Virus record (IMG/VR): IMGVR_UViG_3300039368_000073
Source: a virus
Lineage: Duplodnaviria; Heunggongvirae; Uroviricota; Caudoviricetes
Direction: 5' to 3' (one strand)
Length of the DNA stretch: 4,787 nt
Positions within the stretch are counted from its first letter, which is position 1; the number at the start of each line of letters is the position of its first letter. Below the pieces are notes generated by a model. The model did no database searches. It saw only the letters and a list, made by a program, of their open reading frames with translations, and had not been told where the DNA came from. Made by a program: the position numbers and the translations under genes. Of this stretch, positions 3,100 to 3,737 are shown piece after piece.

Positions 3100-3525
3100 T
3101 TAGTGCATCACCACAGCATTCCCTGCCGGGCCGCCGCGATTCATCTGGTCATACAAAACAACCGCTGACGCAACAAAATCATCGACATCCTTCACCAGCC
3201 GATCCCTCCGTTCGACGATCTCACGGTAATATTCAGAACTGTGGCTGCGCATACGGGCCACCAGCAAAGGCGGCATCGCCTTTTCGATCGCCGGTAACAG
3301 AGCCTGCATTTTTTCAACAGCATCAGGGGTGTCTTTATCCAGCCAACGGAAAATTTTCTGGGTATTACGGGCCAGGGCTTCCGGATGGCTGTCGTCATAC
3401 AGTTCCGGGAACGTCATTCCCAGCTCGAAATACGCTTTGGTAATTTTCGCAGCCGGTACTTTTTCGCCGTCCGGATGCGCCCAGACATTCATCGCCATGC
3501 GGATGTGTTCATGCTTGATTTTCAT
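3100..3525 (-). CDS. ydaT: YdaT-like protein (functional CII equivalent of Rac/CP-933P-type prophages), 141 aa
   Basis: N-terminus MKIKHEHI and C-terminus ...VVMH match what I recall of E. coli YdaT. It sits directly after cro in the CII position. Its ATG (3525..3523) overlaps the cro stop TGA (3524..3522) in an ATGA arrangement. Confidence 0.7.
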   Translation of the reverse strand: MKIKHEHIRMAMNVWAHPDGEKVPAAKITKAYFELGMTFPELYDDSHPEALARNTQKIFRWLDKDTPDAVEKMQALLPAIEKAMPPLLVARMRSHSSEYYREIVERRDRLVKDVDDFVASAVVLYDQMNRGGPAGNAVVMH

Positions 3526-3737
3526 GAATCATTCTTTCCTTCGTTCGAGGTGCTATCCTGCTTCTTGTAAAGTTCTGGGTTGTATTTCAATTCACCGTTA
3601 GTAATTTCATCCAGTTCCATTGCGCGAAGTTTGGGAATAACTGCTTTCCACCGCACAACAGCCACATGTGAAATTCCAAGAGCCTCAGCTACTAGTCGCT
3701 TTTTTTTGAAATAGCGCAGAACATCATCTTTGAACAT
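3522..3737 (-). CDS. cro: Cro-type repressor, P22 Cro family, 71 aa
   Basis: Translation MFKDDVLRYFKKKRLVAEALGISHVAVVRWKAVIPKLRAMELDEITNGELKYNPELY aligns with my recollection of P22 Cro (MYKKDVIDHFGTQRAVAKALGISDAAVSQWKEVIP...GALKY). ATG at 3737..3735 has an RBS (GGAG, 6 nt spacer). It is divergent from the repressor gene. Confidence 0.85.
   Translation of the reverse strand: MFKDDVLRYFKKKRLVAEALGISHVAVVRWKAVIPKLRAMELDEITNGELKYNPELYKKQDSTSNEGKNDS

Follow-up and report, generated by a model that had tools for sequence, protein, structure and literature searches.

Which protein takes the place of CII, and where does it act, in a lambdoid lysis-lysogeny switch whose cro gene runs directly into the gene behind it? 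The question is raised by positions 3100-3737 of a 4,787-nucleotide stretch of DNA assigned to a tailed virus (IMG/VR record IMGVR_UViG_3300039368_000073; the whole stretch is referred to below as the window). An initial annotation, made from the letters of the window, described a P22-type cro coupled to a YdaT-type CII equivalent and raised the possibility that the two form a toxin-antitoxin pair. The window holds the immunity and replication region of a lambdoid prophage with its rightward operon on the minus strand, and the interval is the start of that operon, in a prophage of the CP-933P/Rac/Qin type that is ordinary and very common in Escherichia coli. The analysis points, with high confidence, to the published Cro-YdaT switch having been carried into this immunity cassette, with the operator of YdaT placed on the junction of the two genes. 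The interval consists of the following genes, taken from the open reading frame list:

3737..3522, minus strand: cro, 71 aa (MFKDDVLRYF...), opening gene of the rightward operon, early repressor

3525..3100, minus strand: ydaT, 141 aa (MKIKHEHI...), CII-equivalent transcription factor with a POU-like helix-turn-helix and a tetramerisation helix

The product of the second gene scored 40.9 bits against PF06254 YdaT_toxin (cut-off 21), matched phrog_163, 'CII-like transcriptional activator', with E 3e-47, and over residues 2-141 is 100% identical to PDB 8bt1, the YdaT of prophage CP-933P from E. coli O157:H7. Its only sequence matches in the PDB were the YdaT entries 8bt1 and 3c4r, and the recognition-helix residues Arg53 and Arg60 (numbering of PMC9986795) are both present in the translation. 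PF06254 was also the sole Pfam match of the 141-aa protein at E<=0.01, with none to the lambda CII family (Phage_CII); on these scores YdaT is a functional analogue only of lambda CII and P22 C1, and no member of the CII family. The gene stands where a ydaT would be expected, between a cro-type gene and a replication-initiator gene and divergent from the repressor. The initial annotation had seen in this gene a YdaT-family CII equivalent without homology to lambda or P22 CII/C1, and had staked that assignment on the outcome of profile searches; these were run and returned the YdaT similarity.

The partner was likewise correctly taken for a P22-type Cro, since it scored 59.4 bits against PF14549 P22_Cro (cut-off 30.2, profile search) and matched P22 Cro (PDB 1rzs) with E 9e-12 and 47% identity over 59 aa. 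Its match to NF007282 DicC (E 3e-15, 56.1 bits) lies under the cut-off of 130 for that model, and its match to the YdaS family PF15943 (18.5 bits) lies under the cut-off of 30. Judged by these scores, Cro is a relative of DicC and not DicC itself, and it falls outside the YdaS family.

Structure, DNA binding and a PRE-like promoter have already been published for this exact YdaT protein (PMC9986795, PMC8630535, PMC11879457). The YdaS and YdaT of CP-933P correspond to Cro and CII and are not a toxin-antitoxin module; YdaT is non-toxic and turns on PRE933P, a promoter at the ydaS/ydaT border that is otherwise silent, with the activity of PRM, PR and PL unchanged (Jurenas et al. 2021, PMC8630535). 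The structure shows a POU-like helix-turn-helix domain and a four-helix-bundle tetramer, and footprints at the ydaS/ydaT border revealed a strong site, OM (TTGATT-N6-AATCAA), and two weak ones, OL and OR (Prolic-Kalinsek et al. 2023, PMC9986795). In Rac, footprinting located a YdaT-box, ATGATTCATGAAAATCAA, on the start codon of ydaT (Wons et al. 2025, PMC11879457). A 29-fold increase in leftward transcription, in the direction of racR, depends on this box, from which the Rac and CP-933P YdaT proteins activate 'to the same extent' in vivo (PMC11879457). From these studies we infer that the YdaT of the present locus would also form tetramers, bind DNA and activate leftward transcription.

The initial annotation described an ATGA start/stop overlap between cro and ydaT and saw no intergenic space for lambda-style nutR/tR1 elements. 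Both observations stand: plus strand 3522-3525 reads TCAT, that is, ATGA on the minus strand, and the open reading frames and the sequence agree on the overlap. What that description missed is that the junction, as read from its letters, is not empty; it is occupied by the regulator's own operator. The junction holds the following elements:

3522..3525, minus strand: ATGA overlap of cro and ydaT, with the ydaT ATG at 3525-3523 and the cro TGA at 3524-3522 (from the sequence)

3515..3532, no strand: YdaT box, equivalent of the OM operator, plus strand TTGATTttcatgAATCAT, gene strand ATGATTCATGAAAATCAA (motif search)

3471..3496, no strand: weak YdaT site, equivalent of OL, in the 5′ coding part of ydaT, an exact match to the published OL oligonucleotide CCGGATGCGCCCAGACATTCATCGCC

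The 18-bp inverted repeat at 3515-3532 has one mismatch, at its outermost base, to TTGATTN6AATCAA. On the gene strand it is letter for letter the Rac YdaT-box, and it lies within a 32-bp stretch (window 3502-3533) identical to K-12 Rac. Both the start codon of ydaT and the stop codon of cro fall inside the box. The ATGA overlap is a consequence of this operator sequence: its spacer, TTCATGAA, provides the ATG of ydaT together with a TGA, and whichever cro gene is fused in the matching frame ends at that TGA. An identical overlap is annotated in CP-933P and was also found in most of the other partner types. A Shine-Dalgarno-like AAGGA can be read 11 nt 5′ of the ydaT ATG (the CP-933P counterpart is GGAG, 7 nt from the ATG), and cro and ydaT may plausibly be coupled in translation via the overlap. 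A simple scan, blind to Rho-dependent sites, found no intrinsic terminator on the minus strand from cro to the window end. Lambda tR1 is itself Rho-dependent, and the 'different antitermination logic' that had been proposed for the rightward operon is an argument drawn from absence.

Carried over to this cassette, the switch would work as follows. When cI does not repress, cro and ydaT would be co-transcribed from a PR-like promoter, which the divergent cI-type repressor would repress via operators of the form GTAAC-N4-GTTAC. The YdaT tetramer, as the equivalent of lambda CII, would bind the 18-bp inverted repeat across its own start codon (3515-3532) and, once bound, would switch on an otherwise silent leftward promoter. 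The resulting transcript, running antisense through cro into cI, would favour the establishment or maintenance of repression. A candidate for the -10 element of this promoter was found on the cro side of the box:

3554..3559, plus strand: predicted -10 element TATCCT of the YdaT-dependent PRE-like promoter, reading antisense through cro towards cI, with a predicted start at ~3566

The support for this element comes from its recurrence. On the cI-ward strand, a TAnnnT hexamer begins 39-41 nt after the box's first base, 20-22 bp past the box, in 55 of 55 unique YdaT-linked sequences and in all 12 partner clusters, Rac of K-12 included (the window and loci L002, L004, L015, L054, L061, L083, L086, L099, L144, L163 and L184). 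Clusters were defined by <60% identity within 70 nt past the box; some are related, and roughly ten are independent. The background rate of TAnnnT in a 3-offset window of the same sequences is 4.8%, and the hexamer accompanies 3 of 23 chance matches to the box pattern. It reads TATCCT in the window, TACAAT in CP-933P, where it lies within the published 'OR', and TATGAT in Rac, 20 bp past the box; TAACGT, TAGTTT, TAGCCT, TACGAT, TAACTT, TATGCT and TAAGTT occur in other clusters. The Cro residues encoded at the hexamer vary (QDS, DCS, KTT, QAN), and the constraint is therefore on the DNA and not on the protein. A start at ~3566 would put the box centre at about -42, with the promoter-proximal half-site overlapping a poor -35 region, and the fixed distance of the predicted -10 suggests a box-proximal, class-II-type PRE promoter with a geometry recalling that of CII at PRE. 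There is an even chance that the box, together with the -10 element placed 20-22 bp further on, makes up a transferable PRE unit complete in itself, located exactly where the immunity module has been joined by recombination to the ydaT-replication module. On this reading every incoming cro would need a TAnnnT, inherited or newly evolved, antisense to its final ~10 codons, and the true YdaT-activated promoter would be box-proximal in all these prophages, Rac included.

Some 2.5 kb away from the main box, the DUF1627 (ydaW-like) gene contains a second YdaT core box, CTGATTcacgcgAATCAG (TGATT-N6-AATCA), at 993-1010. The core of this box is perfect and it is kept in 15 variants, with one spacer wobble base varying. 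No TAnnnT stands at the promoter offset, CP-933P is without the box, and the surrounding coding sequence is highly conserved too. This box is not claimed as a functional site; it could be a looping partner for a tetramer that binds two duplexes, or could reflect mere coding constraint.

The mosaic nature of the region, also proposed at the outset, was delimited by alignment and BLAST comparison with CP-933P. Homology covers window 1228-3531 at 92.8% identity (100% for ydaT) and resumes at 4598-4713, with homology to Rac likewise returning at 4597/4598. On the ydaT side the aligned identity begins exactly at TGATTCATGAAAATCAA, and homology starts at the outer edge of the box. The replaced block, 3532-4597, comprises cro, the PR-like promoter, the candidate operators, cI, a terminator hairpin and a PL-like promoter, and stands in place of ydaS-paaR2-paaA2-parE2 of CP-933P; the swap leaves ydaT, its box, the OL site and the replication genes in place. 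Judged from these boundaries, the region is a classic lambdoid 'imm' cassette swap. In keeping with the mosaicism, the 83 loci whose YdaT shows 97% identity or more have no fewer than seven different Cro-type partners upstream, and the joint GATTCATGAAAATCAA is common to all of them, with variation only in the two preceding bases. Of 5426 complete E. coli genomes, 693 (about one in eight) have the exact cro-ydaT-cI junction and 3056 have a ydaT at about 80% identity or better. The immunity cassette was found in no INPHARED phage; the phage matches share only ydaT and the PL leader, and their cI and cro genes differ.

That leader, 116 bp at 4598-4713, directly follows the PL-like promoter and marks the second edge of the swap: it shares 98% identity with CP-933P and 94% with Rac, although the immunity cassettes beside it are unrelated. 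It had no Rfam match, and its fold z of +0.37 gave no sign of structure or of a nut-like element.

The incoming block brings its own repressor and control sites, which are listed here:

3787..4503, plus strand: cI-type repressor gene, divergent from cro (RefSeq start 3787, alternative start 3829)

3764..3793, minus strand: PR-like promoter for cro-ydaT, TTGACA, 18-bp spacer, TACCCT, extended TG (custom scan)

3767..3780, no strand: candidate CI/Cro operator GTAACAATAGTTAC, overlapping the PR -10

3815..3828, no strand: candidate CI/Cro operator GTAACATTGGTTAC, directly before the alternative cI ATG at 3829

4507..4536, plus strand: terminator-like hairpin and U-run after cI, fold -15.1 kcal/mol, z -3.78

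4566..4594, plus strand: PL-like promoter, TTGACT, 17-bp spacer, TACCTT, at the far end of the swapped cassette (custom scan)

4578-4591: candidate third CI/Cro operator GTAACTCTTGTTAC, overlapping the -10 of the PL-like promoter

A strict sigma-70 consensus scan of the window called no promoters, PR included, and the promoter calls come from a looser custom scan used in its place. In that scan the PR-like promoter had the top score on the minus strand, and it aligns with PR933P of CP-933P. GTAAC-N4-GTTAC is present in the window as three exact copies and a fourth with one mismatch (0.04 expected at <=1 mismatch). Two of the copies lie in the cI-cro intergenic region and one at the PL-like promoter, and these palindromes probably serve CI and Cro as operators in this immunity type. 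The ATG at 3829, directly after the second operator, is preceded by TAACAT and would fit a leaderless cI transcript. The hairpin at 4507..4536 was not called by the simple terminator scan.

Profile searches of the repressor, which bears the RefSeq label 'LexA family protein', returned PF01381 and PF00717. Its N-terminal domain matches P22 C2 (E 1e-12) and DicA (E 3e-22, under the NCBIfam DicA cut-off), and its C-terminal domain is an S24 peptidase domain. In an alignment to lambda CI (3bdn), GDAM stands opposite GNS149M, so that the catalytic Ser is replaced by Ala (codon ~4236-4238); the general-base Lys (TLKKV vs TFKKL) and the Ala-Gly site (EQAGYW vs VQAGMF) are kept. With the Ser nucleophile of G-x-S-M replaced, the protein falls outside the self-cleaving S24 repressors of the LexA/CI kind. 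The Ala is found in 42 of 42 IMG/VR loci with the cassette, and a relative at 83% identity (L125) has Ser (GDSM). Its presence in every copy, taken with the absence of the cassette from INPHARED phages, suggests a naturally non-cleavable (ind-minus-like) repressor whose cleavage RecA could not induce, and a prophage that would not be SOS-inducible.

Several points weigh against the switch operating here as published. Its working in this cassette is what we infer from the literature on an identical protein and box. The published OR, located in ydaS, is absent from the window, having been lost with ydaS, and past its outer base the flank of the box on the cro side is unlike that of CP-933P. No Shine-Dalgarno sequence is evident before either cI start, 3787 or 3829, which puts the translational benefit of a PRE transcript in question. 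In an insertion-sequence-bounded piece of prophage whose repressor is without its catalytic Ser, the switch may moreover be frozen in the repressed state. Finally, the text of both studies places the promoter elsewhere than predicted here: OM of CP-933P is described as 'downstream' of PRE933P and as covering its start site (PMC9986795), and activation in Rac is assigned to PracR4 within ydaS, ~190 bp from the box (PMC11879457). The PRE933P-gfp fragment, ~130 bp long, begins 18 bp before OM (its F-PRE primer corresponds to window 3497-3516) and includes TACAAT. The ydaT-side sequence is 100% conserved in the window, and the functional conclusion therefore holds if the promoter lies there instead.

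The Rac assignment also supports the alternative that YdaT acts from afar, on a promoter deeper in cro or in the PRM region, in which case TAnnnT at 3554-3559 would be irrelevant. Weak candidates do exist in this cro, for example TCCACC, a 17-bp spacer and tgGAAATT at 3647-3675 (custom scan). However, each of the unrelated cro partners would then need to have the promoter re-invented, whereas the proximal TAnnnT is present in 12 of 12 classes; the PRE933P-gfp fragment contains the proximal TACAAT, and the portion of PMC11879457 available describes no PracR4 knockdown in the box-dependent activation assay. Action at a distance is thus considered unlikely. YdaT could instead be chiefly an autorepressor or roadblock that restricts rightward transcription into, or translation of, ydaT and the replication genes, with no activation of cI. 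The box does cover the ydaT ATG, 3′ of the Shine-Dalgarno-like motif, the footprint extends to ~95 nt at high protein concentration in a study that calls YdaT a 'repressor' (PMC9986795), and CP-933P YdaT left PRM, PR and PL unaffected (PMC8630535). Such a role is nevertheless very improbable, since binding to the Rac box left ydaT expression unchanged while racR expression rose steeply (PMC11879457), PRE933P activity depends on YdaT (PMC8630535), and a pure roadblock would not need a conserved -10-like element at a fixed leftward distance.

The suggestion that Cro and YdaT are a YdaS/YdaT-type toxin-antitoxin pair, in which the small helix-turn-helix partner would neutralise YdaT and the overlap would fix their stoichiometry, draws on the names 'YdaT_toxin' and 'YdaS_toxin' in Pfam and 'toxin YdaT family protein' in RefSeq, and on the filamentation and death caused by overexpression of Rac YdaT (PMC11879457), a protein about 30% identical. 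It did not survive comparison with the literature: the identical CP-933P protein is non-toxic and the pair acts in transcription regulation (PMC8630535), and the toxicity of Rac YdaT is explained by transcriptional activation of rcsA (PMC11879457). The partner here is a P22_Cro protein under the YdaS cut-off (18.5 vs 30 bits), the occurrence of the same YdaT beside at least seven unrelated partners is incompatible with a cognate antitoxin, and PADLOC gave no matches for Cro or YdaT. A toxin-antitoxin function is regarded as scarcely credible, and the carried-over Cro-YdaT switch is retained as the very probable reading.

Among the closest known systems is the immunity region of CP-933P (Sp12) of E. 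coli O157:H7: YdaT, the ATGA overlap and OL are the same, 17 of the 18 box positions agree, and O-like and DnaC-like genes come next in both. It differs in having a 100-aa YdaS where the window has a 71-aa P22-type Cro, PaaR2 where the window has a cI with an S24 domain, a PaaA2-ParE2 toxin-antitoxin pair that the window lacks, and GTTTAGTAA-type operator repeats in place of GTAAC-N4-GTTAC. Rac racR-ydaS-ydaT of E. coli K-12 (PMC11879457) shares the gene order, the CII-like activation of the repressor gene, an identical 18-bp YdaT-box and a TAnnnT 20 bp past it, although its YdaT is only about 30% identical and its ydaS and ydaT are 22 bp apart, without overlap. The Rac protein has further properties that are not known for YdaT of the CP-933P type: it is toxic, and it binds host rcsA as well as the stretch between racR and ydaS. 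With lambda cro-cII-PRE (and P22 cro-c1) the likeness is one of design: the second gene of the PR operon is a tetrameric helix-turn-helix activator, which in lambda binds at the cro/cII boundary and fires a leftward, cI-directed promoter antisense to cro. The lambda site is, however, a direct repeat, TTGC-N6-TTGC, as opposed to the inverted repeat of YdaT, there is no sequence homology, and nutR/tR1 lie between cro and cII where the window has no intergenic space. P22 immC (C2/Cro) and Qin DicA/DicC have a Cro of the P22_Cro family and a related repressor helix-turn-helix in common with the window, and the ydfA-ydfB-ydfC-dicB leftward operon of Qin is also found in a related prophage, that of E. 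coli RIVM_C019217; DicA, however, is without an S24 domain, and the downstream partner in P22 is C1 where the window has YdaT.

Beyond ydaT the minus strand continues into the replication genes, so that, with cI divergent, this strand reads cro-ydaT-O-like-DnaC-like:

3092..2115, minus strand: O-like initiator gene, 3′ of ydaT

2108..1362, minus strand: DnaC-like loader gene

The usual site of a lambdoid origin is inside the O-like replication gene. The O-like gene of the window contains five tandem 15-bp iterons, TCAACnGTTGAnGGG-like, at 2653-2742. Past the DnaC-like gene on the minus strand follow the DUF1627 gene, a small helix-turn-helix gene and a DUF4406 gene. E. coli RIVM_C019217 carries a near-identical prophage with the same gene order, which extends leftward through ydfA-ydfB-ydfC-dicB-exo-xis-int and rightward up to a Q-type antiterminator; no N gene is annotated in this related complete prophage. 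Both edges of the window are insertion sequences. Positions 1-98 are the right end of an IS1 element that truncates the DUF4406 gene, and a listed 98-aa open reading frame, 17..313, extends into the IS1 sequence. The right edge (~4703-4787) is an IS3-family terminal repeat (IS1203/IS629-like, 95-98% identity), and this right-hand junction occurs in no complete E. coli genome of the collection. An Rfam search of the whole window gave two sub-threshold chance matches and nothing else.

As a discovery the locus carries little weight: the protein, its fold and the operator have already been published, as have the CII-like role and the rejection of a toxin-antitoxin function, and the gene combination is widespread in E. 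coli. Only two points are mildly new: a -10 element at a constant distance from the box, and a recombination joint that falls on the operator. The RefSeq and Pfam designation 'toxin YdaT family protein' is a misleading legacy name that should not be taken as a function. The locus offers a clean example of lambdoid immunity cassettes being swapped at a boundary that falls on a regulatory site, and the conserved -10 element at a fixed distance from the box suggests a simple and testable correction to the position of the YdaT-dependent promoter.

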